Shown: positions 13,282-62,857, counted from the stretch's first letter. The stretch is 64,000 nt of DNA from Planctomycetota bacterium (GCA_030614715.1 JAUWTM010000002.1:17334-81333); one strand, 5' to 3'. Notes: generated by a model from the sequence alone, not told the origin. Numbers and translations are program-made.

Positions 13282-13297
13282 TACTAATTGAGGTGCG

Positions 13298-19597: not shown

Positions 19598-19621
19598 GAT
19601 TCCTCCAAAATAAACTGGTTC

Positions 19622-22198: not shown

Positions 22199-22231
22199 CG
22201 AATTCCTCCCTTATTCCCTGTCAGCCATGTC

Positions 22232-22375
22232 TCAATCCTCATCGAATGGTACCTGCAGCCAGATTTCCCATGTAATTGTGGCAGTTGCGCCCATCGACTG
22301 CATGGATGCCTCGTGTTCCTGAATCTGCGATGGTGATCCTCCTGGTCCGATAAAGCTCTCGTATCCATAGAGGTC
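22232..22375 (-). other. In-frame 47-codon extension after the P3 TGA, encoding the family's conserved C-terminal tail
   Basis: Hand translation in the P3 frame after the TGA gives DLYGYESFIGPGGSPSQIQEHEASMQSMGATATITWEIWLQVPFDED, then TGA at 22232-22234. This aligns with the P4 tail ...RGFIDVFTGFDPSSG...SIISWEIWIQSPETYVRSN. Confidence 0.7.
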
Positions 22376-24817: not shown

Positions 24818-24844
24818 GTGTGTTCTCCTCGTTACTGTTCCTTG

Positions 24845-27454: not shown

Positions 27455-27593
27455 ATTTTCTCCTCCTTCAATAAAACTCAATGCTCGATTAATAGGTTGC
27501 GATTAGTACAACCCATGATCAGGATGGCTGAATCGTTATTGCGCTTTGTACCCTCTACCTAACAGCGTGTAGAACAATTATGTATTTTCTGTT

Positions 27594-27665
27594 GTGGGGC
27601 AGACTTTCCAGTCTGCCTCTTCAAAATTTATATTATATTCTGGCAGACAGGAATGTCTGCCCCAC
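27594..27665. repeat. REP-like inverted pair of GGCAGAC hairpins
   Basis: GTGGGGCAGACTTTCCAGTCTGCC (27594-27617) and TGGCAGACAGGAATGTCTGCCCCAC (27641-27665) are inverted copies of each other, each an internal hairpin, separated by an AT-rich 23-mer. They lie in the P5-P4 intergenic region. Confidence 0.7.
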
Positions 27666-27690
27666 ACGGATTCTGGTCATTTCTACAGAC

Positions 27691-30366
27691 CTAACGTCCC
27701 GGGAGACGGTCGAGTCTGAATTCCCACGTCCTTATTGTCTCGCCGGAGCAGCCGACGAGGAAGGACGGTATCGGGATGATATCCTCACCTTTCGCGATCC
27801 GGACTCCGTCCGGCGTTCTGGTGACGGTTCCATTGAACAGGTTCCCCCCGCCGACCGATTCCAGCCATGCCATAACCTCTGCAGGGGTCTCCGAGGACAC
27901 GTAATCGAAATGATGATCGGCAAGACCGAGATGGATCTGCTCGGTTCTGAGATTGTGCACTCCCGGTCCGAACGTCTCAATCGTGTAAGTCCCGACACGC
28001 GGGTTGGTGTCGGTGACTATCGTATAACGGCCACCCTCGTGCAGCGTGAGTTGAACGCGTGCCAATCCTTCGCCGTATCCCTCCGCGATTGTGACAATCG
28101 ATCCTCCCGGGACAGGCATGGACATTCCATCCATCACAAGTTCCCAGTAGTAATCATGGCTGTAGTCGCCGGTGCTTATAATTGCACCCGGCTCGATGGT
28201 AATCACCTCGCGCACACGCAAGGGAACTGTCGGGAATGCAGGATGATAAATAGTGCTGTCGATCGTGATCGTACCCTCGTTGCAGTACGGATTCATCACG
28301 TTACCGTCGTCGCTGCCATCGAATTGATCCGTCTCGCGACCGCCGGGGGTCAGGAAGCCGTCGAGATCGTAGTCCTCGCAACCGTCGGTCACTCCGCTGT
28401 TGTCAGCCGTGTCGTTATCGGGATCGAGTTCCTTCCAGATATCATCGCCATCGATATCAGGGTCCCTCTCGTGATATGAGCCGCTTGGATCGAACAGATA
28501 ACCAAGTATATCCGTTTTATCGTCAAGGCCGTCATCATCGGAATCCCTGTCGTTCGGATCGGTCCAGAACCTTTCCACTTCATCGAAATCGACAAGACCA
28601 TCACCGTCAGAATCCTGCCTGATCGTGGATTCATCAGATCGCTGAGGAAAACCGTTTGGTGGCGGGAATTCGATGAATCGCGTATCGTCCTCGCCGATCG
28701 ATTCCCATTGAATATCACCCGGCACCCACGGATCGAGTACGTGCACATAATTTGTGGTACCACCGCTCCAGTCGACTATGGCGTAACCATCCAGCAATGT
28801 GGCGTGAGTGTCGGTGCGACGCTGGATGTCACGTAGGACCGGACGGCCATCGTCAATGAATTCCTTGATTGAATCCATGTCCGATGGGTCTCCGTCGTCG
28901 AACACGGTCGAGGACCATGTTCTAGACACCGCTCCGGGTGCGCCGTACAGCCAGTCAAGGATCTGGCAGATGTCCTGGTCCGAAAGTCCCCGGTCATGGC
29001 CGAGGTCACCGCGCGGATCATCGGGATGACCTGCACGTGTCTTTGCCTGCGACGATCCTATTTCCTGAAAAATGTAGTACGAAACGCGGTCCTGGCTGAG
29101 TGTACGTCCCGCGATCCCCGCTATCATCGATGTGCACGCTCTCGCGCAATATATATCCTTGTGCCCGCCCTCCATCGAGGATCCAATCGGATGCGGACCG
29201 TCCCACGGGTAAGTCCCGCTCATAGTGCAGCCGTCGATGCACACCATGTCGGTATCTTTTCGCTGTTGAAGGTGCGTCGCTCCAAGTACACGCCACTCCC
29301 GGCAAACCTCCGATGCTGCCAGGCGGAGTCCGGGTGGTCCGCCCTTGGCTGAGCTTGCCAGACGATCCGGCTGCAGGTTCAGCAGTTGCGATGTGCCGTA
29401 GCCTGATGTCTCTCCGTTCAGAAGGTCGTTCAGGTCGAACGGCTCTTTTGTGAATTGCCGGACAGGAAACCATGGCTGGGCGACACCTGAATCATCGATT
29501 CCCTGTGCACGCCAGAAGTACGTTCCTGAAAGCAGGTTATCGACGAAGAAATATGGTGTCTCGACCGTTGCTTCAACAAGGATCTCGGAGAAGTATTCAT
29601 CCTCAGAGATCTGGAAATAAAATTCCGCCGCCCAGTCGACCCCCATCACCACCAGGTTGAAATCAGATGCGAGCCGTGCACCGTCCGCCGGACGCATTCC
29701 TAGCGGTCCGGGTGGGGGGTTCGGCAGGCCGGGACTTGCATCTTCCATACCGCGTATGGTCCAGAAATATGATCCGATGTATTCAGCGTTGCTTGGAGGC
29801 CATGTGCCGGGCAGACGCATGCAGACGTCACCGGGAAGATACAGTTCAGTGCCTTCATGAATGACCTCAACATCGGGTCGAAGTGGTGAACCGGGAGCGA
29901 AAGGGAGGTTTACAAAACCACCGTCCGGATTTCCCCACGACAGGACATCGGTTGGTCCATCGGGCCCGATCAGCACGCATCCGTCACCTTCGGGAGGAAA
30001 ACCTGATGATCTCGCGATATCTACATGGACCGTGTTGCCCTGCAGCGATGCTTCATCCGTTAGTTGCGGGTCGATCCTGATCAGCACGAAGCCGTTGGGA
30101 GGGCAGTCGGGTGCATCCTGGGGCAGCGCTATGGCCTGTGCTGTAATGAATTGTATCGACCAGCCCGAAAGTGGGCAGGGATCGCCTGCAGGATTGTAAA
30201 GCTCGACCCATGCAGCTCCATCTGACTGCCACGGACTGATCTCACTCAGGATAAGGTAACCACCTGGATTGGCATGGACGGCGGGTACAGGGGAAGGACC
30301 CTGGGATGTTGAAATGATCGTAAAAATGCAAAGGGTAAACAGAAATAATACAGCATATCGCCCCAT
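27691..30366 (-). CDS. Array paralog P5 (same architecture)
   Basis: Signal peptide MGRYAVLFLFTLCIFTIIS. LILSEISPWQSDGAAWVELYNPAGDPCPLSGWSI. TYFWRA. YCARACTSMIA / THATLLDGY / HVLDP. DSDGDGLVDFDE and DSDDDGLDD repeats. Ends TIRTWEFRLDRLPGR. Confidence 0.75.
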   Translation of the reverse strand: MGRYAVLFLFTLCIFTIISTSQGPSPVPAVHANPGGYLILSEISPWQSDGAAWVELYNPAGDPCPLSGWSIQFITAQAIALPQDAPDCPPNGFVLIRIDPQLTDEASLQGNTVHVDIARSSGFPPEGDGCVLIGPDGPTDVLSWGNPDGGFVNLPFAPGSPLRPDVEVIHEGTELYLPGDVCMRLPGTWPPSNAEYIGSYFWTIRGMEDASPGLPNPPPGPLGMRPADGARLASDFNLVVMGVDWAAEFYFQISEDEYFSEILVEATVETPYFFVDNLLSGTYFWRAQGIDDSGVAQPWFPVRQFTKEPFDLNDLLNGETSGYGTSQLLNLQPDRLASSAKGGPPGLRLAASEVCREWRVLGATHLQQRKDTDMVCIDGCTMSGTYPWDGPHPIGSSMEGGHKDIYCARACTSMIAGIAGRTLSQDRVSYYIFQEIGSSQAKTRAGHPDDPRGDLGHDRGLSDQDICQILDWLYGAPGAVSRTWSSTVFDDGDPSDMDSIKEFIDDGRPVLRDIQRRTDTHATLLDGYAIVDWSGGTTNYVHVLDPWVPGDIQWESIGEDDTRFIEFPPPNGFPQRSDESTIRQDSDGDGLVDFDEVERFWTDPNDRDSDDDGLDDKTDILGYLFDPSGSYHERDPDIDGDDIWKELDPDNDTADNSGVTDGCEDYDLDGFLTPGGRETDQFDGSDDGNVMNPYCNEGTITIDSTIYHPAFPTVPLRVREVITIEPGAIISTGDYSHDYYWELVMDGMSMPVPGGSIVTIAEGYGEGLARVQLTLHEGGRYTIVTDTNPRVGTYTIETFGPGVHNLRTEQIHLGLADHHFDYVSSETPAEVMAWLESVGGGNLFNGTVTRTPDGVRIAKGEDIIPIPSFLVGCSGETIRTWEFRLDRLPGR

Positions 30367-47505: not shown

Positions 47506-48558
47506 TTATAATAATTCAAGTATCTCTGCATCGGGTCCTTCCGAAGCAGAATCAAACTGAGCTAATGCTGATAGCAGTAGAATACGAGACCAGTCTGAGC
47601 CTGGTTTAATGCGTTGGTATGACTGAGGAGGTTTAAGGTTGCTTTCAAGCATATTATTAATTTGGTCCAATTTTATTAAATTATCGTAAGGCTTGATGTG
47701 CTCAAATTCTATTGCATATACATTCTCAGATTGATCAGTATAGCTTTCATATTCTTGCTTTGTGCAGCCTATTCTGTATCCACATTCTTCCCAAATCTCT
47801 TCGGGTGATGCAGAAGATATATTTTTTATCTGTGCTTCGCAGATTAGGCTACGTATTGGAGATGATGCATAGATTGAGACTCTTTGTCCTAACCATTTGT
47901 GGCTAAATCTCCTTCTGATCTCAATCGTTTTACGTCCTTGGATGATGGATTTAGCATGCTGAGGTTTCAAAGACATAAGTATTGGGTTATCTGTAGACAA
48001 ACCATTGATGCAGAAATGATCAATAAGTTTTGGCAGTTTTTTTAAGGCTGAACGCCATACGGTTTTAAATGATGCTGAACAGAGGAATTCAGATTCTGAC
48101 GGTCGATACTTACAGCCTACATCATGAAAATTTTTGAATCCAAAAGATCCGAAAAAACCTTTACGTGCATGCCAAAGGCTCTCTGGAAGCGTGAAGTGGA
48201 TTTCCTTTGAGCCTTTTCCCACACCGATTGTCATCATTATGAATAGCATTTCACCCAGATTTTGATCCTGAACATCTTCTTCGATTTTCAGATGACAGAA
48301 TTTGGGAAACTCCCCCCTTTTCGCAATTGCAGTAGCTACAGGTTTATTGTCTTTTAAACAGATATACGCCAATCTTTCTTTGGAAATAATCCCCGGTACT
48401 ACTTTTTCCTTAAACCAGCGGGAAATTTCAGGATACATTCTTTCGTTCATTAAGATTCTTTCTTTAAATATATCGAATAAGTTGGATTTAGCCCTTATAT
48501 CAGAGCCGGTCAAAATTTTAATACTAATGTTCTCTTTATATTTAAAATTTAATGCCAT
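47506..48558 (-). CDS. GNAT-like / ASCH-domain fusion protein
   Basis: The C-terminal half starts [25 protein letters not shown], a typical ASCH (PUA-like) opening. The N-terminal half has a GNAT-like layout (...AIAKRG...[19 protein letters not shown]...FGFKNF), which is tentative. AT-rich codon usage. Confidence 0.6.
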
Positions 48559-48616
48559 GTTCTAGCGATCATTCCTATCTTTTAAATATATTGTTTATTT
48601 AAAGTGATGATTGAAA

Positions 48617-49729
48617 TTACTTCCAATCTTCAAAGAATTTAGATAATTTTAAACCTTGTGAATCGTAAGGGCTTGGATCAGGCTCAGCGTCTTCAGACAT
48701 ACGAAATAATGAAAGTCGCGCCAATTTTTCCCCGTCAATGAGATTTACATCCACTGTGTGACCTCGGACTTCAAAAATAAGTGGGGTGCCCTCTTCCTGA
48801 TCAGAACGATTTTTGCCGAAATGAGGATGGACAAATCCTGCGTAATGTATCCGCATTTCACCAATAGTCTCGTCAATAGCTCGACAGTATACAGCTATGC
48901 CTTTAGGGACTGCGATTTTTTCTTTGGATCTTAAAATGTAAAAATTATCTGTTTCAATTTTCAATCTTCCATGATCTGCGAGTTTCATTTCCCAGAATTC
49001 GTCCGGTTTGGGCTTAGGATCTTCATCTGTTTTCCATAGGTCAATAGTAAGATCGGTGGGATATTTTGCACAAAATGCACAAGCATTCTTTCCAGGAATT
49101 ATTTCTGTTTCTTCAAGGTTAACGGAAAGACACCCATCGGATTCCTGAATGTTACGAAGCAGACACAACCAGTAATCCTTGCCTTTAACTTTTGAAAGAT
49201 CAGGATCACAATAGAAAAGGCGGAGCTGTGATAGTGAAATATCTTTTTTAACGTTGATGTTAAATGTGATAGGTGTAATCTCAAGATACATATCTGGTGA
49301 ACTAAGGTGCTCAGGTATAAAACCCTCGTATCCATACATCCCATCTACAATGAGCCTAGCGAGTACATCAACACGACCGATTGAGCTTTTAGCTGTGGCT
49401 TGCCCATATATTTTAGAACTTTTTGAAAGGTGGAGTTGCTCCCTTAATTTAATTAGATAGGTTTTTCTAGCTTCTAGCTTGAAAATATCATCATCTGGCT
49501 CCAGTTTGGACATATATTTGTCTTTTATAAATGTATGATATCTTGCTCCGTGGGGTTTAATCGATCCTTCTTTCAACACATAGCCTTCATCGGTCAAATG
49601 TAAATCTATTGAGGATGCGCCAATGCTTTTTTTATCAACATTTTTTAGATAACCATCTTCGCACAGTTGTATGGTCTGTGCTTTATTAAGGACTCCTGGA
49701 ATCCATTCTTTCCAAGGCTCTTTTCTCAT
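48617..49729 (-). CDS. Long-form 2'-deoxycytidine 5'-triphosphate deaminase-family protein (DCD / dUTPase-fold)
   Basis: N-terminal IGASSIDLHLTDEGYVL resembles the Dcd ASVDLRLG motif. C-terminal ILRSKEKIAVPKG...IHYAGFVHPHFG...GTPLIFEVRGH...LIDGEKLARLSLFRMSE resembles the Dcd core, with a Glu at the LEF-like position. About 370 aa, as in the long DCD family. Confidence 0.65.
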   Translation of the reverse strand: MRKEPWKEWIPGVLNKAQTIQLCEDGYLKNVDKKSIGASSIDLHLTDEGYVLKEGSIKPHGARYHTFIKDKYMSKLEPDDDIFKLEARKTYLIKLREQLHLSKSSKIYGQATAKSSIGRVDVLARLIVDGMYGYEGFIPEHLSSPDMYLEITPITFNINVKKDISLSQLRLFYCDPDLSKVKGKDYWLCLLRNIQESDGCLSVNLEETEIIPGKNACAFCAKYPTDLTIDLWKTDEDPKPKPDEFWEMKLADHGRLKIETDNFYILRSKEKIAVPKGIAVYCRAIDETIGEMRIHYAGFVHPHFGKNRSDQEEGTPLIFEVRGHTVDVNLIDGEKLARLSLFRMSEDAEPDPSPYDSQGLKLSKFFEDWK

Positions 49730-51179: not shown

Positions 51180-51512
51180 ATGAAGCTTGCTGAGATGAAT
51201 ATCGAGCCGCTTCCCGACGGCACTGTGCCACTTACCGAGCAGGAAGCTCTTGAACTCGGGAAGGGAATTCCCGACTGGGAGATCATGGATGATGAGATCG
51301 AGAGGGAATATACGTTCGGGGATTTCAGGGAAGCGATTGCATTCGTGAACAGGATCGCCGACATTGCCGAAGCCGCGAACCATCATCCGGAGATAGAAAT
51401 CAAGTACAACAGGGTTGAAGTCGAGTTGTCGACCCACAGTATTGGGGGATTATCGAAAAACGACTTCATCCTTGCGGCGAAATTCGACACGGTTGTCGAG
51501 GTGACAGAATAA
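51180..51512 (+). CDS. phhB: Pterin-4-alpha-carbinolamine dehydratase
   Basis: F.DF.EAIAFVNRIADIAEAANHHPEIEIKYNRVEVELSTH is the PCD signature. Confidence 0.85.
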   Translation: MKLAEMNIEPLPDGTVPLTEQEALELGKGIPDWEIMDDEIEREYTFGDFREAIAFVNRIADIAEAANHHPEIEIKYNRVEVELSTHSIGGLSKNDFILAAKFDTVVEVTE

Positions 51513-52259
51513 GTGGCTGAGCTGCGCTTACAGGGTCGGACCGCACTGGTCACCGGGGCTGCGAAACGGCTTGGTCACGCAATCTCCCTCAGGCTTGCTT
51601 CCGACGGGGCGAACGTTGTCATTCATTACAACCGTTCGGGTGAAGATGCAGAGAAATTGAAGATCAGGCTGATAGACTCCGGCGTTAAGGCATGGACGGT
51701 TCAGGCGGACCTGTCGGTATCCGATGATTACGAATCACTCGTCGGACGGGCACTGGATCTTTCGGGTTCTCTGGATATCCTGGTCAACAATGCGTCGGTA
51801 TTTTCATCCGGCGACCTGATGAAATTCAGCCTGGATGACCTTAATAAGAACATCGAGGTTAACACGTGGGCACCTTTCGTTCTCTGCAGGACTTTCAGGG
51901 ATTATTGCGACAGTGGCTCCATTGTAAACATTCTCGACACGAGGGTTGCCGACCTCGACCTTAAGCACCCGGCCTACATCCTCAGCAGGAAGATGCTCCT
52001 CGATCTGACTGAGATGATGGCTGTCGGGTTCGCACCAAAAATAATGGTAAATGCGGTAGCGCCCGGACTCATTCTGCCACCGCCGGGGAAGGACAAATCT
52101 TATCTTGAAGCGCTAATGGGATCAGTGCCGTTGAAACGTCACGGCAAACCAGCCGACATCGCCGATGCAGTCAGCTACCTTGTATCGAGCGATTTCATTA
52201 CAGGACAGGTAATCTACGTTGACGGGGGACGTCACCTCAGGGAGTACGAGCATGGATAA
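51513..52259 (+). CDS. Short-chain dehydrogenase/reductase, pteridine-reductase-like (FolM/PTR1-like)
   Basis: ALVTGAAKRLGHAISLRLA cofactor motif (TGxxxRxG as in pteridine reductases) and NNAS motif. Lies between PCD and folB. Confidence 0.65.
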   Translation: MAELRLQGRTALVTGAAKRLGHAISLRLASDGANVVIHYNRSGEDAEKLKIRLIDSGVKAWTVQADLSVSDDYESLVGRALDLSGSLDILVNNASVFSSGDLMKFSLDDLNKNIEVNTWAPFVLCRTFRDYCDSGSIVNILDTRVADLDLKHPAYILSRKMLLDLTEMMAVGFAPKIMVNAVAPGLILPPPGKDKSYLEALMGSVPLKRHGKPADIADAVSYLVSSDFITGQVIYVDGGRHLREYEHG

Positions 52260-52602
52260 AATACACATCAGGGACCTGCATCTTCGCACGATAATCGGCG
52301 TAAATGACTGGGAACGTACCGACATGCAGGACGTTTTCCTGAATATCACGCTGGTAATAGACCTGTCGAAGCCGGCTTCGACTGATAACATCGACGACGC
52401 TGTAAATTACAGGGATCTGAAGAAAAAAATTATGGAGCTGGTGGAAAATTCCAGCTTCATGCTGATAGAGACTCTTGCCACCAGGGTCGCGGAGCTGTGC
52501 CTGGAAAATCCGGACGTGCAGGAGGTCACTGTCACGCTCGACAAACCGCACGCGCTGAGATTCGCGAAAAGTGTCGCGGTTGAAATTACCAGGTCAAGGT
52601 AA
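52252..52602 (+). CDS. folB: Dihydroneopterin aldolase
   Basis: MDKIHIRDLHLRTIIGVNDWER...DDAVNYRDL...LIETLA is typical FolB. ATG 52252 overlaps the SDR gene end. Confidence 0.85.
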   Translation: MDKIHIRDLHLRTIIGVNDWERTDMQDVFLNITLVIDLSKPASTDNIDDAVNYRDLKKKIMELVENSSFMLIETLATRVAELCLENPDVQEVTVTLDKPHALRFAKSVAVEITRSR

Positions 52603-52617: not shown

Positions 52618-53085
52618 TTATCCGCCGGGAATGGTCATGCCTTCCGGGAGTTCCATACCTTCCGGCATTCCAAGATCCTCCAGGGCGTCCATCATACCGC
52701 TGAGATCGAGATCGACATCATCGATCTTCCACTGGCCGCCCTCCTTTATCAAAATCCACCTGAAGCCGTCGAAGTCCTTGTGCCAGACCTTGGCTGTATC
52801 CCCTGTGATTTCGCTGACGAGATTCGCTTCGTTTCCCCAGGGATTTTCTCCCATCTCGGGATTCGGAGTTTCGCTCATCTCCCTGAAATCGTCCTCGTCG
52901 CCTGCCTCTTCGCTCATGCTGTTGGAGATGTAGGTCTTCGCCTTGTTGTAGTTTTCGTCCTCGATGGCCTGGAAGAATCCTGCCACTGTTTGTTCCGGTG
53001 TTCGACTCGAACATCCGGTTGCCATAAGTGTGATTAGAATTGATGCGATAAATAATGCCGGTAGAATCCAGTTAGTTGCTCTCAT
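52618..53085 (-). CDS. Small lipoprotein (paralog of 62168-62641)
   Basis: Start ATG 53085 with GGAGGAAG upstream. Lipobox LMATG|C. NKAKTYISNS...TAKVWHKD...WILIKEGGQWKIDDVDLDL parallels the other copy. Confidence 0.7.
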   Translation of the reverse strand: MRATNWILPALFIASILITLMATGCSSRTPEQTVAGFFQAIEDENYNKAKTYISNSMSEEAGDEDDFREMSETPNPEMGENPWGNEANLVSEITGDTAKVWHKDFDGFRWILIKEGGQWKIDDVDLDLSGMMDALEDLGMPEGMELPEGMTIPGG

Positions 53086-53161
53086 CTCTTCCTCCGATGT
53101 TAGATCGACTGCCTGACGTGATGATATCAATGCGTGCCATGTAATGCAATTTTCAGAAAAA

Positions 53162-56050
53162 TCACCAAAGATCCAGCGCTCTCAAACCGCCATAGATGCC
53201 GCCGACAAATGCATATCCGGCGAAGACATCAATCCCGTAAGAAATTCCATTAAACTCAAACACTTCCTCTACAAATGCGTCTTCAGGCGGGTCTACATCA
53301 ACAACAAACAAATCTTCTGATGCACTAGTTACAAATGCGTATCCGAAGCCTACATCGACTCTTGACGGTGACGGAGTGTCCAGGAATACTGTCGTAACCT
53401 CACTAATATCGAGCGGATCGGTGATATCAAGGATATGCAGGCCAAAGCTTTGATCGACAACGTACGCGTACTGATCGTCGATTACCACGTCGAATGCGTT
53501 CGTAACCGTGGCTACATTGTTCACGATGGATGCAATTAATGGCGGGTAGACATCAATAACCTGCAAACCACCCGTGCTATCAGCTACATAGGCATAACCG
53601 TCCACTACATCAACACCGACAGAATTACCCGGAGTCGGGACAATGGTGATTGGCGTCAGCGTGCCATCCTCTTCTATGCTTAGAATATTCAGCCCGTTAT
53701 TGTAGGTGGTCATGTAGGCTGTGTCATTGTCGACAGCGATATCCTGTGCGTTGCTCATTACACCAAGGGAGTACACGACGTGAGCTGCCGATGGTGGATG
53801 TACGTCTACGACGCTAATTCCAAAGTCGGCGTCCACGGTGATTGCATATTCATCGTAAAGTTCGAGACTGAACGCCGCTCCTGGTAGTTCCACGTGTTTA
53901 ATAAATGTCATGTTTTCCGGCCAGGGAATATCGAATATGTCCAGATCGCCATAACCATTAGCTGCATAGGCATAATACCCATCTATCTTTACATCCATGG
54001 TAAACGACGGCGTTCTGAGGGTGGTTACGTGGGCAGCTTCATCGTAAGGATCTACATCGTAGATCTGGATACCCGCATAGTGATCTGCTGCTATTACATA
54101 ACCGTCCTCGAACTGCACTTTAAACGGCCATCCAACCGGGACAGAATTTATAATCGTTTCTGTGACCCAGTCGTAAATTTGTAATCCCCCGGTATCATCA
54201 CCTATATAAATGTACTCTCCATAGCATACGCCGAAAGCTTCACCCGGTGTATCCTCGGTATCAATGTCGAGTGGAATGGATGGATCAAAGAGATCCACGG
54301 TATGCAGACCGCTCGCGCCGACCGCTACTGCCGCAATTGCCCACTGGCTGGTGACATCATTTGCGTCATCCGGCGTTGGATGTGTAGTAAACAGTGCCGG
54401 GGCAGTCGGATCAGCGACATTGATCGTTGTGATCCCGCTGCTGCCATTGGCAGTGATTAATATATCAGTGTCCTTGGCAATCGCCGAGCAGCTGCTGCCC
54501 GTATTAATGGACCCGGCAATATGTGCGTCGGCCGGGGGATCTACATCAATACAATATGCCCATCCTGCCATGCTGCATACGTAAGCGTACTCACCATCGA
54601 CTACGACATCGGTTGGCATGTCATCAGTTAAGATTACCGGACCGTGGATGACCGGGGCAACAGGGTCGGTGAGGTCATAGATCCAGAGACCGTTCTCTAC
54701 ATCGGCAACATACACGAACGATCCCTGCGTGAACACTGCGTATGCGTAACCATCTACATCGTATTTCCTCATCCAGAAAGGATTCTCCGGATCCTGCAGG
54801 TCGATCAGGTGAAGCCCGTCAGTTACAGAAACGACATAAGCAATGCCGTCCACCACGTGCATGTCTCTCGGCGCCCAGTTAAGCCAGTCAGGTGAAACGT
54901 CGCGTATGTCCAGTTCCGGCTCCCATTCAACCACTGTAAATGTGCGGATTTTGTACGCGGTAGAATCGATCCAGTACGGGTCAAGATCCGCGTTGACATC
55001 CCTCACGCTGATCAGGTATTCGTACTCATCGGAATCTGCATAGAGCTCATTTCTCACTGTGATGTTGAACGTGGAGTAAGCCCCGTCGTCGCTGACCCAA
55101 TCAGTCTCACGTGTACCGGTCCAGAGTCCGGGACATTCCAGCACGGGTAGGTCGTATGTTGCGGAACCCTGCCAGTCGAATACGAATATTTCCAGTATTA
55201 CTTCTCCACCTTGATCGGTGAGACCCTGGTCCACCGGATGAGGCGTTACATTAATCTTCCACGGTACCCAGCAGTTGGCGTTCGCTCCGAAATCGATCAT
55301 CGGATCGGTGACCGGTGAGGTCACTGGTGGTGCCCAGCATGCATCGATGGCGTATCCGAGTCTCCATTCGAAGTCAGGCATGTCGATCTCATAGTTGACG
55401 GTTATTTCATCCCCTGCATAGAATGCATTGCGTGTGTTTTCAGCACCCGATGAGATGAACCGCTTGTATCCGTTCAATGTTGCCTGCGGGAAGTCGGGAC
55501 TGGCGAAATTCCCCTGGATATATCCCTGCAGACCGCCGGGTCCTGCACCTTCGTAGAGGAAGTTGTATAAAGTCGTGTGACCCTCAGCGTCAACGAGCTC
55601 TCCGTCTCCCCATTCGCGTGCCGGTGTTCTCAGCCAAGCATCCGGGAAAGTTGCGGAGCCATCGAACATTGCTATGCCGCGCACGTCGAAACCGGTGAGG
55701 TTCGGATTCCCGAACGGGTGGGTGACCGTCACGTCCAGCGTGATTGTCCCTTCAGGCGTGACAGCCACGTTCGAGACACCCAGGCAGGTGAAGCACGGTC
55801 CGGATTCCAGCCACTGAAGCGTGTTCCAATGATCCGCTGCAAGACGCGATGGGATAACCGTTGCTTCAAGGGTTCCCGGATCGATTTCGATATCGTAGTA
55901 ACCCCAGAGCGAACGGCTGGATTCGATGGTGGGGCTCCGGTCAGTAAACTCCGGGACCTGTTGTGTAACGGGATCAGCCGACTGGTTACAGCCGACAAGA
56001 AATCCAATAGTGATGACTAATATGATCGGGAGGGAGAGTCTGCGTGCCAT
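53162..56050 (-). CDS. Large surface lipoprotein: novel N-terminal domain + LVIVD-repeat beta-propeller(s)
   Basis: Lipobox GFLVG|C. More than 12 LVIVD-type repeats (GLHLIDLQDP, GLWIYDLTDP, GLQIYDW, GIQIYDVDPY, GISVVDVHPP, GLQVIDVYPP, GLHILDITDP, DLFVVDVDPP, GLRALDLW). Confidence 0.8.
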   Translation of the reverse strand: MARRLSLPIILVITIGFLVGCNQSADPVTQQVPEFTDRSPTIESSRSLWGYYDIEIDPGTLEATVIPSRLAADHWNTLQWLESGPCFTCLGVSNVAVTPEGTITLDVTVTHPFGNPNLTGFDVRGIAMFDGSATFPDAWLRTPAREWGDGELVDAEGHTTLYNFLYEGAGPGGLQGYIQGNFASPDFPQATLNGYKRFISSGAENTRNAFYAGDEITVNYEIDMPDFEWRLGYAIDACWAPPVTSPVTDPMIDFGANANCWVPWKINVTPHPVDQGLTDQGGEVILEIFVFDWQGSATYDLPVLECPGLWTGTRETDWVSDDGAYSTFNITVRNELYADSDEYEYLISVRDVNADLDPYWIDSTAYKIRTFTVVEWEPELDIRDVSPDWLNWAPRDMHVVDGIAYVVSVTDGLHLIDLQDPENPFWMRKYDVDGYAYAVFTQGSFVYVADVENGLWIYDLTDPVAPVIHGPVILTDDMPTDVVVDGEYAYVCSMAGWAYCIDVDPPADAHIAGSINTGSSCSAIAKDTDILITANGSSGITTINVADPTAPALFTTHPTPDDANDVTSQWAIAAVAVGASGLHTVDLFDPSIPLDIDTEDTPGEAFGVCYGEYIYIGDDTGGLQIYDWVTETIINSVPVGWPFKVQFEDGYVIAADHYAGIQIYDVDPYDEAAHVTTLRTPSFTMDVKIDGYYAYAANGYGDLDIFDIPWPENMTFIKHVELPGAAFSLELYDEYAITVDADFGISVVDVHPPSAAHVVYSLGVMSNAQDIAVDNDTAYMTTYNNGLNILSIEEDGTLTPITIVPTPGNSVGVDVVDGYAYVADSTGGLQVIDVYPPLIASIVNNVATVTNAFDVVIDDQYAYVVDQSFGLHILDITDPLDISEVTTVFLDTPSPSRVDVGFGYAFVTSASEDLFVVDVDPPEDAFVEEVFEFNGISYGIDVFAGYAFVGGIYGGLRALDLW

Positions 56051-56178
56051 TGCCTGTCCTCTTTACCGACGAATGACCTAATTAAAGCGTATTAAGCCTG
56101 TACAGTAAAGGAACAGACATTTATTTCAAATTTATGTCTTGTTTATACTGACGGACCTGGCCTTCAATACAGCAGAGA

Positions 56179-59037
56179 TCACCAGTTCCCATCCGGGGGA
56201 AAGTACGTGATAAATGCATCTCCATTACTATAATACTCGCTATCCAGCGAAGTACGCAGATACTCCCCCGGGCCAGGGTCAAAGTCGACTGTATCCCAGA
56301 AATTCCCGCTACAGTATATATGTCCCATGGGACCGACAGTGACCTCTGAGGTCCCCCCCCAGTCGTGTGGGCCTCCCCAGGCTCCATGCCATTGGTATAT
56401 ACCATTGGGATCGAACCTGGTAACGAACATATCGGAATGTTTATCTACAGATGATGACTCAGCAATACCGGGACCTGGATCAAAATCCACTGTTTCACTG
56501 AAGATCCCAGTTACAACAGCGAATCCACCATCGTCAACGTCAACTGAGATCCCCCTATTCTCTGAGTGGAAGCCATATGGCAAATCCGATCCCCAGCCAT
56601 GGGCCCAAAATAATTCGCCATTGGGGTCAAATTTGCTGAGAAATGCTGCACCTTGATACCCGGCAGTATATTCCAGAACACCGGGGCCAGGATCGAAATC
56701 GACCGTTTCGTTTATGTACCCTGTAACGAAGATGTCATCATTGACATCGACTGCAACTCCAAGACTCTCATCCTTCAAAACTCCTCCCCAGCCCACGGCC
56801 CATTGAAATGTGCCATCGCCGGAGAGCTTGCTCAAAAAGCAATCAGTCCAACCAGTTGAGGTTGGTTCAATCCACCACGTGTCCCCGCCAGGATCAAAAT
56901 CAGTTAATGTAATGAACGAACCGGCGACATAGACATTACCGGATGCATCTGTGTCTACAGCCCTTGCTACGGTCCAATCTGCTGGTGATTCTGTCCATCC
57001 ACCCCAGGTTCCCGCCCAGATGAAATCCCCCGACGGACTCATTTTTAACAAGAAGGCATCATGTGTTCCAATCAACTCATGTATGTCGGTTCCAGGTCCG
57101 GGGTCAAAATCAATTGTCCCGGCATAAAAACCAGCCATATATACATTATCGTTTCCATCCGTGCACATGTCTATACTGCTCTCGCGACCTTCTCCTCCGA
57201 TCGTGCGGGCCCATATAAAGTTGCCGTCTGAATCGTACTTGGCAACCAGGATATCCAGGTCACCGTTGGATACATAAAATTGCTCGCTTGGATCACCCTC
57301 AAAACGAACATCGATAAAAAAATAGCCTGACAAATAAATATTATCATCACTGTCAATCGCCACCGCTCCCGCCCCTTCATGAAAATCACCACCGATTACT
57401 CTGACCCACTGGAATATCCCTTCGCTGTCAAATTTACTAACAAAGGCACTCTCACCAGGCATATATCCGGGCCATGCTACTTCACGCCATTCCACTCCAG
57501 GACCCGGATCGAAATCAATAGCTCCGGAGTAAGTGCCAACCGTAATTATATTGCCATCGTTGTCAGTGCAGATACTTCGAGCTGTATCGTTGACTCCGGA
57601 ACCCCAGGTCCGAGCCCAGCCTGGATCCGTCTTGACCTGTATTAAAATTGACGTAACACCGGTCGAGCCTTCGTCGTCCGTAACGCGCATATTTACTTCG
57701 TGATCCCCGGGAATGCCAAACGTGTGTGACACTAATTCCCCTTCCGCATCGTAGGTCCCATCACTCTCCCAGTCCCACTCCCATTTGACAATGTCACCGC
57801 CATCCGGATCGTATGAGCCATTTTCAAAGAATTGAACAGGTTTTGAGACTGTTTGAGGTAGTGGCCACGCATCAGGCATCGCCACCGGCTCGTGGTCAAC
57901 AAAGACCACTTCGACAGGTATTATGTTATATCCAGTTTCAACGCTTGGATCATTAAGGCCTTCCAATGGCCTGACCATAGCGAACAGTGGATAGACCCCT
58001 ATTGGATGTCCGGAATCATTGAGATAACCTTTATAAATAATGGTTCCATCAAGTTGAGTTTCGTTATAAACTGGTATACTACCGTAGCCATCCGGCCACT
58101 TAATTTTCGCGAATAATATTCCATCCTTTCCCTGGTGATCGTTGATCTCAAGTGTATATGGAATATCTAGCTCAGGTGCAGTATCAAACACACCCTCAAA
58201 GGTAACCGATATTCGATATGCTTCAACGCAATTGGCTTCAGGGGGGAAATCGGTCTCAGGATCTGTTACAGGTCCGGGTGGTTTGGCCCAGCATGCATCA
58301 ATTGCGTAACCGAATTCAAAGGGAACGCCGGGAAGCAGAATCCTGGCTGTCCTGGTTTCCTGTGTTCCGGGTAAAAACATGCGTCTTGGAGTTTCTTTTG
58401 AATATGCCAGGAAGGGATTAAGCACTGCTGAAAGGTCGGTGCTGTTTGCATACTCACCAGTGTAATACTTGAATATCGGGTGTTCTGAGGAATCCTCTGG
58501 ATAATATAAAGGATTGAAATACTTTGTATAGCCATCATAGTTAATGAGGAAAGGCAGATCGATGTTTTCTACATTGGGGATATCATCCCACCATGATAAG
58601 GGGTATAATCCTACCGGGTAATAGTTATAATCTGTGATAAAAACCCCTCTGACATCAAAGCCGGTGAGGTTAAGGTTGTTTTCAAAAGGATGTCTCAATG
58701 TTATGTCTACACTGAGCTCTCCCGGTGTGCTGAAATCAAAATTATCTATGGTGAGGCAATCGGTGCAGGGTGACACCTCTAGCAGATAAGTTGCATTTAG
58801 ATGCATGCCTGCAATACGCTGGGGAGCAGCCAAGACAGTCTGGCTATCGGGATCCACGCTGAATTGCCAGAGACCCCATAGGTATCGATTGCTGTCTACT
58901 GATTCCTGAGCAGTACTCTGAAAAGATAAAGTGTTGTCATCATTCGACGGGAGCACCGGATTCGTTGATCCACCAGAGGCACATCCCATCTGGAGGAGAA
59001 GGAGACACCCAATTAATATGAGAGATTTATTCAGCAT
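56179..59037 (-). CDS. Large surface lipoprotein: same N-terminal domain + PKD domain + SBBP-type beta-propeller repeats
   Basis: Lipobox LQMG|C. PKD-like FENGSYDPDGGDIVKWEWDWESDGTYDAEG...VNMRVTDDEGSTG. Six or more G.....[IV]DFDPGPG repeats (SBBP-like). Confidence 0.8.
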   Translation of the reverse strand: MLNKSLILIGCLLLLQMGCASGGSTNPVLPSNDDNTLSFQSTAQESVDSNRYLWGLWQFSVDPDSQTVLAAPQRIAGMHLNATYLLEVSPCTDCLTIDNFDFSTPGELSVDITLRHPFENNLNLTGFDVRGVFITDYNYYPVGLYPLSWWDDIPNVENIDLPFLINYDGYTKYFNPLYYPEDSSEHPIFKYYTGEYANSTDLSAVLNPFLAYSKETPRRMFLPGTQETRTARILLPGVPFEFGYAIDACWAKPPGPVTDPETDFPPEANCVEAYRISVTFEGVFDTAPELDIPYTLEINDHQGKDGILFAKIKWPDGYGSIPVYNETQLDGTIIYKGYLNDSGHPIGVYPLFAMVRPLEGLNDPSVETGYNIIPVEVVFVDHEPVAMPDAWPLPQTVSKPVQFFENGSYDPDGGDIVKWEWDWESDGTYDAEGELVSHTFGIPGDHEVNMRVTDDEGSTGVTSILIQVKTDPGWARTWGSGVNDTARSICTDNDGNIITVGTYSGAIDFDPGPGVEWREVAWPGYMPGESAFVSKFDSEGIFQWVRVIGGDFHEGAGAVAIDSDDNIYLSGYFFIDVRFEGDPSEQFYVSNGDLDILVAKYDSDGNFIWARTIGGEGRESSIDMCTDGNDNVYMAGFYAGTIDFDPGPGTDIHELIGTHDAFLLKMSPSGDFIWAGTWGGWTESPADWTVARAVDTDASGNVYVAGSFITLTDFDPGGDTWWIEPTSTGWTDCFLSKLSGDGTFQWAVGWGGVLKDESLGVAVDVNDDIFVTGYINETVDFDPGPGVLEYTAGYQGAAFLSKFDPNGELFWAHGWGSDLPYGFHSENRGISVDVDDGGFAVVTGIFSETVDFDPGPGIAESSSVDKHSDMFVTRFDPNGIYQWHGAWGGPHDWGGTSEVTVGPMGHIYCSGNFWDTVDFDPGPGEYLRTSLDSEYYSNGDAFITYFPPDGNW

Positions 59038-59187
59038 AACGCCGGACCATGTGTTTATTTATGGTGTCATTCACTAGAACCACCTAATTTTATCATATAA
59101 TCCAGATATGGTGACAACATCAGGTCCGCTCAGGGCTCCATCAACTTCGACCGGGCTGCTGCCTCAGGATACTATGGCGGCTGGAAT

Positions 59188-62082
59188 CTACCACAGGTCC
59201 AGTACTCTGAATCCACCGATGTAGCCCCCGACATAAGCGTATCCATCAACAAATTCCATGCCGAATGCAAATCCCCTGAGATTGATAGTATCGACAAGTA
59301 ACACATCCTCAGGCGGATCGATATCGATTACGTAGATTTCGTCTGAAAGGGTGGTCACGAATGCGTGGCCATATTGAATATAGACGAAACGGGGTTCTTC
59401 GACGAGTTCGATATACGTGATTTCCGAACAGTTGGTCGGATCCGAGATGTCGTAGATGTACATCCTCATGTCATCGCTTGTAATGCATGCGTAATCGCCC
59501 GCTATATCTACATCTCCCACAATTCCGGGGATGCTCATGAAATCGACAATTGATGCTGAACCGGGAGGATCGCAATCTATTACCTGGACACCCTGGACTC
59601 CATCCGCGACGTATGCATAGCCGTCAGCACCACAGATACCGTCGGCTATGCCGGGTGTCGGAACTGAACCCGCAAGAGTCAATGTCCCTGGTGGTCCGAT
59701 ATCATAGATGGCCATTCCGACAACCTGATCGGAAGCATAAACCCGATCGCCATCGATGGCGAGTTCCTGGGGTAAGCTGGGTGAAAACAAGATATCAGAA
59801 ATATGTGTCAGCCCGGGAGGGTCAATGTCGTAAATAAAAATATCTCCGTACCCATCGGTCACATATGCGAAGCCATCAGCGGCATCAATTTTGTATGAAT
59901 AATACGGAGTAATGATAGCTTTTACGATAAACGTGTTTTGAGGATCGTGTACATCAAGGACAAAGAAACCCTCGAGGTTGGTTAAGAAAGCATACCCATC
60001 ATCTACATATACATCCATTGCGAATCCTGGTGTCAACAGGGATGTAACCTCGTGAGCATCATCAAACGGATCGACATCGGCAACGTGTAATCCCAGTGCG
60101 TCGTCCGCAGTGTAAACATACCCGTCGTAGTATTCAATAAAGCTTGCAGTTCCTTTAATAGCCGCATCCCCAACAATGTTAGCCATAATTAGTGGATCTA
60201 CATCGATAATCTGAATGCCGTCATGACCGGCTCCAACGTAAACGTGTCCAAAGGAGTAATCCAGGCTTTGCGCGTCGCCGGGAGTGTCGACGGTGACTAC
60301 TGGTACCGGGGCGCCTGGAATAAGAAAATCAATCACCTGCATCCCGAAACCGCTTACAGCCGTGGCCGCAAAGAAATCCCAACAGGTGACATCCCGGGCC
60401 ATTCCAACAGTGACGAAATTAGATTCGAGTGCTGGATTTACAGGATCGGTAACATTGATGATATCGATACCGTCATCGCCAACTGCTGCAACGATGTAGT
60501 TGTCATGCTTTTCGAGATTTTGGACCGATGCAGTAGTCGGTTCCGATCCCACTAAATGAGTGCTCTCCGGAGGATTGATGTCGAATATATCCAACCGCCC
60601 CGCTAGATTTCCCACATACGCGTAGTTAGAGTTGGCATGAACGCGGCCGGGATAGTCCGCTATGGCGAACGGACCATAAACGATCGGATCTTCCGGGTCG
60701 AACATATCGTAAATAATCAGGCCTTCCATTAAATCCGTGACATACACAAAGGAACATTCAGCAAATACTCCATTGTAGAAACAGTCCTCCCCGTACTTCC
60801 TTACCCAGAACGGATTATTCGGATCCGACAGGTCGAAAATGTGCAGCCCGTTCATAACTGAGGTTATGTAACCGGTATCACCATGTTTGAGGAAGTCCGA
60901 CGGTGCCCAGTTTAGCCAGTCCGGAGTCACATCGACAATATTAAAATCGGGCTCCCACTCGACAACCTCAAGGTTGAGTACCTTGTACGCGGTCATGTCG
61001 ATCCATTCGGGTGATGTACTGCCTGCAAAGTCGCGCACTGTCACAAGGCATTTGTATTCCCCGACAGGAGCGAGGAGGTCATTGTTAATAGTGATGTTGA
61101 AGGTCGAGTAAGCCCCATTATCGCTGTCAAAAACCGCCAGTCGAGACCCGTGGAACAAATCAGGACATTCCAGCCCCGGTGTAGCGTATGAAGCGTCACC
61201 ATCGTAATCGAAGACGAACAGTTCCAGGATCAACTGGCCACCCTGATCGTTCAGACCCTGTCCGACCGGATGCGGTGAGACGTTTATCTTCCAGGGCTCG
61301 GGACAATTGGCTTCGGGACCGAAATCGGTCATGGGATCTGTCACGGGCGTAGTTACCGGTGGAGTCCAGCAGGCGTCGATGGCATATCCGAGGACAAGAT
61401 CTCCATCGGGCATGTCGATCTCGTAATTCATTGTCACCTCGTCCCCGGCGTAGAAAGCGTTGCGCGTGTTGGACGGATCGTCCGATATGAAACGCATGAA
61501 GCCGTTCAGCGTGGCAGTCGGTACTTCACCTGACGCGAAATTTCCCTGGATGTATCCCTGCAGTCCGCCCGGACCCATACCTGTCGTGGCTGGATTGTAG
61601 AGTGTCGTGTACCCCTGCGCGCTCACCAGCTCCCCTTCGCCATTCCGACGATCCGGGACCCTGAGCCATGCATCAGGGAAGGTCACGCTCCCGTCGAACA
61701 TTGCTATGCCGCGCACGTCGAACCCGGTGAAGGTCGGATTCCCGAACGGGTGTGTGACCGTCACGTCCAGCGTGAGCGTCCCTTCAGGCGTGACAGCCAC
61801 GTTCGAGACACCCAGGCAGGTGTAGCACGGGCCGGATTCGAGCCAGCCCAGTGTGTTCCAGTGGTCTGTCGCGAGACGCGATGGGATAACCGTCGCTTCA
61901 AGGGTTTCCGGATCGATTTCGATATCGTAGTAACCCCAGAGTGAACGGTTTGATTCGATGGTGGGGCTCCGGTCAGTTATATCCGGGACCTGTTGTGTTA
62001 CGGGATCAGCCGACTGGTTACAGCCGACCAGAAATCCAATACTGATGACTAAAATGATCGGGAGGGAGAGTCTGCGTGCCAT
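59188..62082 (-). CDS. Large surface lipoprotein, paralog of 53162-56050 (N-terminal domain + LVIVD repeats)
   Basis: N-terminus nearly identical to that of 53162-56050. LVIVD-type repeats (GLHIFDLSDP, GLIIYDMFDP, RLDIFDINPP, GIDIINVTDP, GMQVIDFLIP, GIQIIDVDP, GLHVADVDPF, FFVLDVHDP, DIFIYDIDPP, GMAIYDIGPP, GVQVIDCDPP, RMYIYDISDP, EIYVIDIDPP, GFRVLDLW). Confidence 0.8.
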   Translation of the reverse strand: MARRLSLPIILVISIGFLVGCNQSADPVTQQVPDITDRSPTIESNRSLWGYYDIEIDPETLEATVIPSRLATDHWNTLGWLESGPCYTCLGVSNVAVTPEGTLTLDVTVTHPFGNPTFTGFDVRGIAMFDGSVTFPDAWLRVPDRRNGEGELVSAQGYTTLYNPATTGMGPGGLQGYIQGNFASGEVPTATLNGFMRFISDDPSNTRNAFYAGDEVTMNYEIDMPDGDLVLGYAIDACWTPPVTTPVTDPMTDFGPEANCPEPWKINVSPHPVGQGLNDQGGQLILELFVFDYDGDASYATPGLECPDLFHGSRLAVFDSDNGAYSTFNITINNDLLAPVGEYKCLVTVRDFAGSTSPEWIDMTAYKVLNLEVVEWEPDFNIVDVTPDWLNWAPSDFLKHGDTGYITSVMNGLHIFDLSDPNNPFWVRKYGEDCFYNGVFAECSFVYVTDLMEGLIIYDMFDPEDPIVYGPFAIADYPGRVHANSNYAYVGNLAGRLDIFDINPPESTHLVGSEPTTASVQNLEKHDNYIVAAVGDDGIDIINVTDPVNPALESNFVTVGMARDVTCWDFFAATAVSGFGMQVIDFLIPGAPVPVVTVDTPGDAQSLDYSFGHVYVGAGHDGIQIIDVDPLIMANIVGDAAIKGTASFIEYYDGYVYTADDALGLHVADVDPFDDAHEVTSLLTPGFAMDVYVDDGYAFLTNLEGFFVLDVHDPQNTFIVKAIITPYYSYKIDAADGFAYVTDGYGDIFIYDIDPPGLTHISDILFSPSLPQELAIDGDRVYASDQVVGMAIYDIGPPGTLTLAGSVPTPGIADGICGADGYAYVADGVQGVQVIDCDPPGSASIVDFMSIPGIVGDVDIAGDYACITSDDMRMYIYDISDPTNCSEITYIELVEEPRFVYIQYGHAFVTTLSDEIYVIDIDPPEDVLLVDTINLRGFAFGMEFVDGYAYVGGYIGGFRVLDLW

Positions 62083-62167
62083 TGCCTGTCCTCTTTACCG
62101 ACGAATGACCTAATTAAACCGTATTAAGCCTGTAAGGTAAAGGTGCAGACATTTAATTCTAACGGGT

Positions 62168-62641
62168 CTAGTACTGCGGCATCTGCGACATGTCGAATCC
62201 CATGTCTTCCATACCCTGCGCCATCGCCGCTAAGTCAATATCGAGATCGTTAATCTTCCACGAGGCGCCCTTCTTTACCATGACCCACTTGACCCACGGC
62301 ATTTCAGGCTGCCAGACACGTGCTGTGTCTCCGTCAATCGTGTACTCGTACATCTCGGCAAGCTCGGATGCGTTGGGCATCTCTGATCCCGGGATCGAGT
62401 ACTCTGCAGGCATGAAACCCATCATCGTTTCGATTCCGGTCATGTATGAGCTGTTGAAACTGTCGGTGCAGTATCGCTTCGCCTTGTCCGAGTCCCTGTC
62501 GACAAGTGCGAGTGAGAACTTTGCCAGCACTTTGTCAGGCGGACCCGAGGAGCATCCTGCAAACGCAAAACTGACGAGGATTGACAGCAGCACAAGCAGC
62601 GCGATCTTTGATAAAACAAATGTTCCTTGTCTGGAGAGCAT
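62168..62641 (-). CDS. Small lipoprotein (paralog of 52618-53085)
   Basis: Start ATG 62641 with GGAGGTG upstream. Lipobox FAFAG|C. DKAKRYCTDSF...TARVWQPE...WVMVKKGASWKINDLDIDL. The longer track ORF runs into REP repeats. Confidence 0.7.
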   Translation of the reverse strand: MLSRQGTFVLSKIALLVLLSILVSFAFAGCSSGPPDKVLAKFSLALVDRDSDKAKRYCTDSFNSSYMTGIETMMGFMPAEYSIPGSEMPNASELAEMYEYTIDGDTARVWQPEMPWVKWVMVKKGASWKINDLDIDLAAMAQGMEDMGFDMSQMPQY

Positions 62642-62687: not shown

Positions 62688-62857
62688 CCCGTAGCGGCGC
62701 ATGGCAATGCGTCGCGATTGAAATAAACATCCGTAGCACAGCACGGCAGTGCGTCCAACCTGGATAAATATGCATTCCGTAGCACTCGCCGCGGCGGGCA
62801 GTGCGTTTGCTATTACATGAATTGAAAAATAACGACGCATTGCCATGCGTCGCTACG
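62688..62857. repeat. Nested REP-like repeat cluster (CCGTAGC-headed hairpin units)
   Basis: Outer inverted pair CGTAGCGGCGCATGGCAATGCGTC (62690-62713) and its reverse complement with 1 mismatch (62834-62857). Inner units CCGTAGCACAGCACGGCAGTGCGT (62731-62754) and the variant CCGTAGCACTCGCCGCGGCGGGCAGTGCGT (62777-62806). Confidence 0.85.

Follow-up and report, generated by a model that had tools for sequence, protein, structure and literature searches.

The stretch of DNA analysed here, a 64,000-nucleotide window from a Planctomycetota bacterium (GCA_030614715.1, JAUWTM010000002.1:17334-81333), contains five adjacent lipoprotein genes at positions 52,618-62,641: three large ones (A, B, and C) and a small one on either side (sL and sR). 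The original prediction for this locus was that the large proteins share a homologous N-terminal part of about 330 amino acids, that different propellers are attached to it, and that the shared part (here called the head) anchors or exports alternative binding modules. What is the head, and do these five genes form a module that recurs elsewhere? Sequence comparisons place A, B, and C in a large family of modular envelope lipoproteins that is restricted to one lineage and has not been described before. By the same comparisons, what is new is the head domain, while the tails are ordinary LVIVD, SBBP, and PKD members. Our preferred reading, to which we assign a probability of roughly 55%, is that the lipid-anchored head makes one common and conserved interaction close to the membrane and that the propellers provide diverse specificities.

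The head and its family

All five open reading frames (ORFs) lie on the minus strand at the predicted coordinates (Table 1), and they are co-directional, with gaps of 76-150 nucleotides. The proposed symmetry (small-large-large-large-small) holds for gene order but not for orientation, because the five genes share one direction. By BLASTP, A and C are 53% identical over their full length (72-74% in the heads), A and B are 36% identical over A41-269 (E = 2e-33), and B and C are 31% identical over residues 2-378 (E = 4e-38). These similarities are far beyond chance and, together with the five ORFs, confirm three minus-strand lipoproteins of about 950 amino acids with a homologous N-terminal part. 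The motifs that were originally noticed in the head (LWG..., HPF...TGFDVRG, and GYAIDACWA...VTDP..DF...ANC) all occur in A, B, and C, and within the window a profile of the head matches these three genes only. The flanking proteins of about 155 amino acids are indeed paralogues (35.5% identity over 121 amino acids, E = 1e-22). Each protein has a lipobox: LVGC in A and C (Cys21), QMGC in B (Cys19), ATGC in sL, and FAGC in sR. The lipobox pattern is [LVI][ASTVI][GAS]C, from which the QMGC of B departs at -3. The start of sL at 53085 is backed by orthologues with a conserved signal peptide. (A public collection's call for sL, with 135 amino acids and beginning MATGC..., starts 20 codons late and loses the signal peptide.)

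The head does not match any curated family. There was no match in Pfam-A 2025 on residues ~46-375 of A, B, or C, and none in NCBIfam 20.0 on the three heads. A permissive Pfam scan (E ≤ 1) of 22 head-only sequences gave nothing recurrent (CBM49 in 3 of the 22, at E = 0.003), and sequence searches of the PDB with phmmer and with a profile gave best E values of 0.14-0.25 for the head. Literature searches returned no description of the family. We also considered kinship with the Lamin-Tail-Domain heads of another paralogue cluster in the window, and rejected it (hhalign probability of 0.3%).

The family is nevertheless large. The head of A matched 60 proteins in a database clustered at 90% identity, all of them from metagenomes or from metagenome-assembled genomes (MAGs) of uncultured organisms labelled "bacterium"; the precomputed Pfam field shows no domain on the head in these 60 proteins and is blank for head-only homologues. 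Among 1.84 billion representatives, a profile matched 2,854 clusters at 50% identity, including 1,172 at E ≤ 1e-30, and the head was at the extreme N-terminus in 150 of 150 cases among the matches listed. In contigs from one genome per species, we confirmed 323 copies of the head. The best 80 of these 323 are from ten MAGs labelled "Planctomycetota bacterium" or "bacterium" (the taxonomy of the relatives is that of the INSDC labels of the MAGs only), and a single MAG has 22 loci with 51 head ORFs. Head genes often stand in tandem, with as many as five in a run. Viral contigs do not contain the family, and we reject a phage origin for that reason.

An AlphaFold2 model of the whole head, built from an alignment of 47 sequences, has a mean predicted local distance difference test score (pLDDT) of 84.7 and a predicted template modelling score (pTM) of 0.81; domain 1 modelled alone with AlphaFold has a pLDDT of 80.3 and a pTM of 0.80. 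In the model, the signal peptide is followed by a disordered linker (residues 22-45), an all-beta domain 1 with long loops (~46-262), and an immunoglobulin (Ig)-like domain 2 (~265-375). The region of about 330 residues that was first described as a single domain is modelled as two domains. When the whole head was compared to the PDB with Foldseek, the only matches were to generic tandem Ig-like domains, with template modelling (TM) scores of ~0.2. For domain 1, there were no matches at E ≤ 1e-3 in the PDB (TM ≤ 0.31) or in a fold search of BFVD. Domain 2 has local matches to the C-terminal Ig-like domain of sulfite oxidase/dehydrogenase (probability 1.0, 102-133 columns, root-mean-square deviation 5.4-7.6 Å). 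On the model, we consider domain 2 to be an Ig-like/E-set beta-sandwich, at the level of the fold only and with no bearing on function. The view that the head is unassignable therefore stands for Pfam, NCBIfam, PDB sequences and profiles, and Foldseek against both PDB and BFVD, and no well-known family emerged for the N-terminal domain.

We scored the conservation of each residue across 147 diverse family members, which are otherwise about 45% identical. The lipobox Cys is kept in 132 of the 133 members with an aligned N-terminus, and it is followed by S/A at +2 and then by a Gly/Ser/Asn-rich tether of ~25 residues. Within the head, the PCxxC pair (C86/C89) is 99-100% conserved, and H74, N76, E82, H111-P-F, F121-D-V-R-G, Y177, R207, Y233, D236, W239, N259, and E262 are 94-100% conserved. 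The head of B retains every invariant residue, with C306 as the exception. Model confidence is low in the invariant loops 70-83 and 163-180. The CxxC motif lacks a following His and is therefore not a haem c site. The conserved Cys pairs had been singled out as possible disulfides; conservation as a pair holds for PCxxC but not for the other cysteines. In "DACW", position 238 is a Cys in just 27% of members, and C260 and C306 are Cys in 92% and 91% but are lost independently. A second disulfide, whether C238-C260 or C260-C306, was rejected, as neither conservation nor co-variation backs either pair.

Tails, small lipoproteins, and the history of the locus

Pfam bears out the description of the C-terminal parts. 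A and C have LVIVD repeats (PF08309, 81.6 and 65.3 bits versus a cut-off of 20.2), with G-h-x-h-h-D-h motifs spaced at 42 or 84 amino acids. B instead has a PKD_4 domain (PF18911, 42.1 bits versus a cut-off of 27) and SBBP repeats (PF06739, 31.0 bits versus a cut-off of 20.5) with a period of ~67-70 amino acids over seven DFDPGPG units. BLASTP finds no similarity between the tail of B and those of A and C. B also partially covers the LipL53-family model (NCBIfam NF047494, an equivalog) at 87.3 bits, short of the threshold of 400.

Across 88 complete homologues, the same head is joined to at least eight tail families: PKD (31 proteins), SBBP (26), LVIVD (15), DUF5122 (11), DUF5074 (9), PQQ_2 (5), and DUF7723 (5), as well as FG-GAP, LRR, PD40, and cytochrome-D1-like propellers. 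The nearest head shares the propeller class in 72 of 93 cases, as compared to 37% expected, so heads and tails mostly co-evolve. In 21 of the 93 nearest-head pairs, the propeller class differs despite 50-67% identity between the heads, which implies repeated exchange of tails. The proposal of a conserved head with swapped tails is thus correct for the family as a whole, but B did not come from A or C by a recent exchange of tails.

The tails do not end in a C-terminal sorting domain that Pfam or NCBIfam would recognize (the C-terminal domain of type IX secretion system [T9SS] cargo, PEP-CTERM, or LPXTG); the chains finish within the last propeller repeat. About half of the family has a terminal Trp, on any type of tail (46/97 and 74/144, versus a Trp background of 2.2%), as ...GLRIxKLW on LVIVD tails and ...PDGxW on SBBP tails. 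In A, B, and C, this Trp is at 53165, 56182, and 59191, respectively. The terminal Trp coincides with the last repeat-unit boundary, and a structural end-point is therefore its simplest explanation. The idea of a genome-wide C-terminal signal was rejected: among the 41 genes of the window, A, B, and C are the only ones with it.

A tract of ~480 base pairs at the 5' ends of A and C (55650-56130 and 61682-62162, at a constant offset of 6032) has ~90% nucleotide identity, versus ~60% elsewhere. Its codons are 75-92% identical, versus ~45% elsewhere, and synonymous sites are nearly unchanged inside the tract and saturated outside it. Furthermore, the A-C pair is the top outlier among 699 within-genome pairs of heads. 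This indicates recent and local gene conversion, not a habit of the whole family; as a general mechanism, 5' gene conversion was rejected because A-C is the sole strong outlier. The history of B is different. Its GC content at third codon positions (GC3) is 0.445, lower than in A and C (~0.55) and in neighbouring genes (~0.60-0.65), and its head shares just ~30-41% identity with any other head. B thus belongs to another subfamily and was acquired separately; it did not arise by a tail swap of A or C.

The small lipoproteins fall into two subfamilies, sL-type and sR-type, with ~30% mutual identity. Orthologues of sL all have a lipobox and are 52-79% identical, more than is seen for the large proteins; the relatives of sR are P0213 (56-57%) and a protein at locus L082 (40-44.5%). 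sL has a weak match to DUF4878 (PF12870; 18.9 bits, E = 0.0019, profile positions 2-111 of 112, with a cut-off of 24.1), and a Pfam search of sR gave no match to DUF4878. Weak matches to DUF4878 and DUF3828 that span the whole domain were found in 6 of 7 relatives (best E = 4.2e-5). A profile of the small proteins also has a faint match in the PDB to the NTF2-like N-domain of PBP5/PBP2a (E = 0.14). Both DUF4878 and DUF3828 comprise secreted or lipid-anchored proteins of the NTF2-like type (PMC3924330), and on these sequence matches sL and sR are likely NTF2-like. They resemble proteins of these families (PF12870; Cj0202c, PDB 3K7C; PMC3924330) in being lipobox proteins of ~155 amino acids with weak whole-domain matches, but they fall below the Pfam cut-off and have an extra, Met/Pro/Glu-rich C-terminal repeat tail. 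In sL (52618-52680) and its orthologues P0062-P0066, these repeats (MPEGxEMPEG...) are conserved, and sR-type proteins have a shorter Met-rich end. Given its composition, the tail of the sL-type proteins may bind metal, as one idea.

Are the small lipoproteins linked to head genes in other genomes, as the original prediction implied? We built a profile from both subfamilies and scanned 77 head loci with 134 head genes (953 kb). There were no matches, even at E ≤ 10. Nor is there another recurrent neighbour of head genes, such as a barrel or a transporter: 519 neighbouring ORFs formed 452 clusters, of which the largest had 5 members. A metagenome scan for loci of the small proteins found one short contig only. 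The five-gene module is therefore not general: none of the 77 head loci has a small gene, and at L082 there is a small gene and no head gene. sL and sR are not general partners of the head family.

The small genes belong to another context. At L082, ProS is followed by an sR-type gene and then by HPPK and FolB on the opposite strand. At L080, an sL-type gene adjoins HPPK-FolB-SDR-S15-PNPase, and the contig ends on the other side. At L081, ProS and a Zn-ribbon gene precede an sL-type gene, with two head genes ~5 kb away. At L083, which is the closest relative and is syntenic with the window, an orthologue of A (61% identity) is followed by sL (79%) and by FolB on the opposite strand. The flanks of L080, L081, and L083 are syntenic with those of the window. 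HPPK is between the small gene and FolB in L080 and L082 and is missing there in the window and in L083, where sL abuts FolB. (We compared the FolB interval of the window, 51180-52602, to L080 and L082.) Because of the contexts in these four loci, we view ProS-small lipoprotein-(HPPK)-FolB as a conserved frame. In the window, the interval between ProS and FolB contains both small-gene subfamilies, with the three head genes between them. Judging by their sequences, sL and sR represent two old subfamilies of a probably NTF2-like lipoprotein whose usual place is the ProS-FolB interval. The trio would then have arisen locally within this conserved housekeeping interval: A and C would be duplicates whose 5' ends were recently homogenized by gene conversion, and B would be a compositionally foreign member from another subfamily.

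The linkage of small genes to head genes is not quite limited to the window, as a head gene precedes sL at L083 and also at L078. At L078, a divergent but genuine head with an FG-GAP/PQQ propeller (7175-10489 on an 827-kb metagenome contig) is encoded directly upstream of an sL-type gene. The neighbourhood (TilS/FtsH ... Thy1) is unrelated to the window, and this is the sole non-syntenic case of head-small pairing. Also, 84 nucleotides after P0213 (the orthologue of sR) comes a gene of at least 164 amino acids in the same direction, a spacing that matches that of sR and C.

These cases bear on two alternative accounts of the locus. The head could define a new lipoprotein display system, in which a lineage-specific N-terminal docking or export module would tie dozens of different propeller cargo domains per cell to one envelope component that they share, with sL and sR as an accessory factor that acts in trans. 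Such a module would play a part like that of an SLH domain or a T9SS C-terminal domain and yet be related to neither. In this combined form we think the idea is unlikely. More narrowly, and as a weaker version of the module first predicted, the small NTF2-like lipoproteins could be partners of the large ones (for assembly, as escorts, or as co-receptors), with one or two per genome, encoded beside one family member, serving the whole family in trans. Both sL and sR flank the trio in the window, the order of an A orthologue and then sL is kept in L083, the pairings at L078 and P0213 would fit, and the small proteins are better conserved than the large ones. However, the 77 head loci lack a small gene; at L082, a small gene lies between ProS and HPPK and head genes are absent; the small gene at L081 is preceded by the unrelated Zn-ribbon gene; and the independent contexts are few, as the window and L083 are of common ancestry. 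We consider it doubtful that the small proteins are such partners.

What the head and the propellers might do

In the arrangement that we favour, each large protein would consist of a Sec/Lsp signal peptide, a lipobox Cys, a tether, the two-domain head, and a variable tail of ligand-binding scaffolds. The lipid anchor would hold the protein in one of the membranes of a diderm envelope. (The window includes a type IV pilus-like cluster with a secretin, which suggests a diderm context.) The membrane-proximal head would provide one shared interaction, for example with a common envelope component to which it docks, or with a ligand or metal, and the tail would confer specificity, so that a genome with dozens of paralogues would have a repertoire of binding modules. 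The comparisons show directly the architecture, the size and expansion of the family, the diversity of its tails, the lack of a known relative, the conversion tract, and the synteny. From these features we infer the membrane and topology of the proteins, their exposure at the surface, and a docking role for the head, which may also have a role in export or assembly, as first proposed.

Several observations weigh against a shared docking interaction. Lipidation, the choice of membrane, and the orientation of the proteins are predictions from sequence. The invariant His, Cys, Asp, Glu, Arg, and Tyr residues resemble an active site or a metal-binding site more than a passive stalk, and two of the invariant loops of the head have low model confidence. 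A candidate for a docking partner was sought among the 519 ORFs that neighbour head genes, and none was found. Also, the order of head gene and then sL recurs at the non-syntenic L078, which hints that the small protein may matter.

The invariant residues could be explained if the head were an enzyme or a catalytic module that binds a cofactor or metal, with propellers that recruit substrates, in which case the family would be an expanded set of envelope enzymes. Highly expanded families of envelope enzymes exist elsewhere. H74, N76, E82, C86, C89, H111, D122, R124, R207, Y233, D236, N259, and E262 are the kind of residues that such a site would use (94-100% conserved), the low model confidence of loops 70-83 and 163-180 would be expected if a ligand orders them, and a fold without a solved relative leaves room for a novel active site. 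On the other hand, no catalytic family is similar in sequence or fold (Pfam, NCBIfam, PDB, or Foldseek), the CxxC does not form a haem c site, and membrane-proximal tandem beta-sandwiches are typically carried by stalks and adaptors. A catalytic head is possible but improbable.

It is still less probable that the proteins face the periplasm, as scaffolds anchored in the inner or outer membrane like BamB-like or PQQ-like propeller lipoproteins: the lipobox is the sole established element, PQQ_2/BamB-like propellers do occur among the tails, and a surface-export signal or partner was looked for and none was identified, but PKD, SBBP, LVIVD, and LRR modules are typical of extracellular or cell-surface proteins (PMC2447325 for LVIVD; Pfam descriptions for the others), and dozens of variable paralogues suit recognition of the environment better than periplasmic housekeeping.

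How does the preferred reading, a common membrane-proximal interaction with variable propellers, compare to known systems? In SLH-domain proteins, choline-binding proteins, and the C-terminal-domain cargo of the T9SS, a constant anchoring or sorting module is combined with variable modules. By analogy, one conserved module on dozens of paralogues per genome, with residues whose conservation would fit a common partner, is what the head family offers. Unlike the modules of those systems, the head is N-terminal, comes after a lipid anchor, and has no similarity to them in sequence or fold. As for the tails, LVIVD repeats are known from cell-surface proteins, such as surface proteins of Methanosarcina (PMC2447325), and the tails of A, B, and C are bona fide modules of the LVIVD, SBBP, and PKD surface proteins, all of which are secreted or anchored repeat proteins. 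Part of the tail of B resembles the LipL53-family SBBP lipoproteins of Leptospira (NF047494, 87 bits). In contrast, LipL53 and the other LVIVD, SBBP, and PKD surface proteins do not have this head, and here it is the N-terminal module, not the repeats, that defines the family. A parallel for a lipid-anchored propeller as an outer-membrane binding module is BtuG, which one report (10.1101/2025.07.01.662609) describes as a surface-exposed beta-propeller lipoprotein of Bacteroidota that works in complex with the TonB-dependent transporter BtuB. As described there, BtuG has a dedicated transporter as its partner, whereas head genes lack a recurrent neighbour and encode an extra two-domain head.

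The head amounts to a sizeable piece of protein "dark matter", with thousands of clusters, dozens of copies per genome, and a confident model, yet no curated family, no solved relative, and no description in the literature. Once defined, it would be a new domain family and would draw attention to the main repertoire of variable envelope proteins in this lineage. The cluster of invariant residues and the CxxC provide an entry point to the question of how binding modules are anchored or displayed in these bacteria. The locus also exemplifies how such families grow: by tandem duplication, by 5' gene conversion, and by taking up a foreign paralogue within a housekeeping interval.

Features of the locus and the rest of the window

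Table 1. Positions of genes, domains, and other elements at the A-B-C locus, numbered from the first nucleotide of the window
Feature	Position	Strand	Description
sL	52618-53085	-	ORF, 155 amino acids (aa); lipobox ATGC; NTF2-like/DUF4878-like core (likely); Met/Pro/Glu-rich C-terminal repeats
Gene A	53162-56050	-	962 aa; signal peptide/lipobox, linker, head, and ~14 LVIVD repeats; ends ...GGLRALDLW
A signal peptide and lipobox	55988-56050	-	aa 1-21; LVGC
A head domain 1	55265-55915	-	aa 46-262; predicted beta-sandwich (AlphaFold model and conservation)
A head domain 2	54926-55258	-	aa 265-375; predicted Ig-like/E-set beta-sandwich (model and local Foldseek matches)
A tail	53165-54883	-	LVIVD propeller region; 42-aa period, ~14 units (PF08309 and repeat spacing)
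Gene B	56179-59037	-	952 aa; signal peptide (QMGC, Cys19), head, PKD, and seven SBBP units; ends ...PPDGNW
B head	57883-58890	-	aa ~50-385; 31-36% identity to the A and C heads
B PKD domain	57652-57864	-	aa 392-462; PF18911 42.1 bits, PF00801 31.7 bits
B SBBP-type seven-unit propeller	56182-57630	-	aa 470-952; PF06739 and seven [IVLT]DFDPGPG units
Gene C	59188-62082	-	964 aa; paralogue of A with LVIVD tail; ends ...GGFRVLDLW
C head	60958-61947	-	aa 46-375; head hidden Markov model E = 9e-162
sR	62168-62641	-	157 aa; lipobox FAGC; sR-type subfamily of the small-lipoprotein family
Gene-conversion tract, A copy	55650-56130	-	from about -80 nucleotides to codon ~133
Gene-conversion tract, C copy	61682-62162	-	~90% nucleotide identity with the A copy
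Terminator-like hairpin	62829-62856	-	after ProS and upstream of sR; 12-bp stem, then T-run; consensus match only

The sequence AATTAGGT is present in three copies in the 64 kb, at 56076-56083, 59082-59089, and 62108-62115 (minus strand), 26-52 nucleotides upstream of the ATG of A, B, and C. As a regulatory element of the family it was rejected: it was found in 1 of 92 regions upstream of head genes in other genomes. Because it is not enriched before head genes elsewhere, its role is at best local. An Rfam search of the window gave no match to a structured RNA, and the counts of promoters and terminators in the window were not above those in shuffled sequences.

The window contains a second family with a constant head and a long tail. 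At 17123-30366 (minus strand) are five tandem paralogues of 813-891 amino acids that are 36-42% identical to each other. All five have a Sec signal peptide and an N-terminal Lamin-Tail-Domain; their middle part is rich in Cys and His and weakly matches Peptidase_C39_2, and they also have Asp-rich, TSP3-like calcium-binding repeats. (This is the cluster that hhalign separates from the lipoprotein head, at 0.3%.) The pilus-like cluster is at 10-15718 (plus strand) and includes proteins with pseudopilin-like N-termini and an unusually long secretin of 1,576 amino acids with an AMIN domain. Finally, a low-GC island at 47506-49729 (minus strand; GC of 0.37-0.385, GC3 of ~0.32 versus ~0.6) encodes an ASCH-domain protein that matches the PADLOC candidate defence system PDC-M11 (E = 1.8e-26) and a dCTP-deaminase-like protein of 370 amino acids. 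Because both genes are absent from the syntenic interval of L080, the island was probably inserted and is probably of a defence type.

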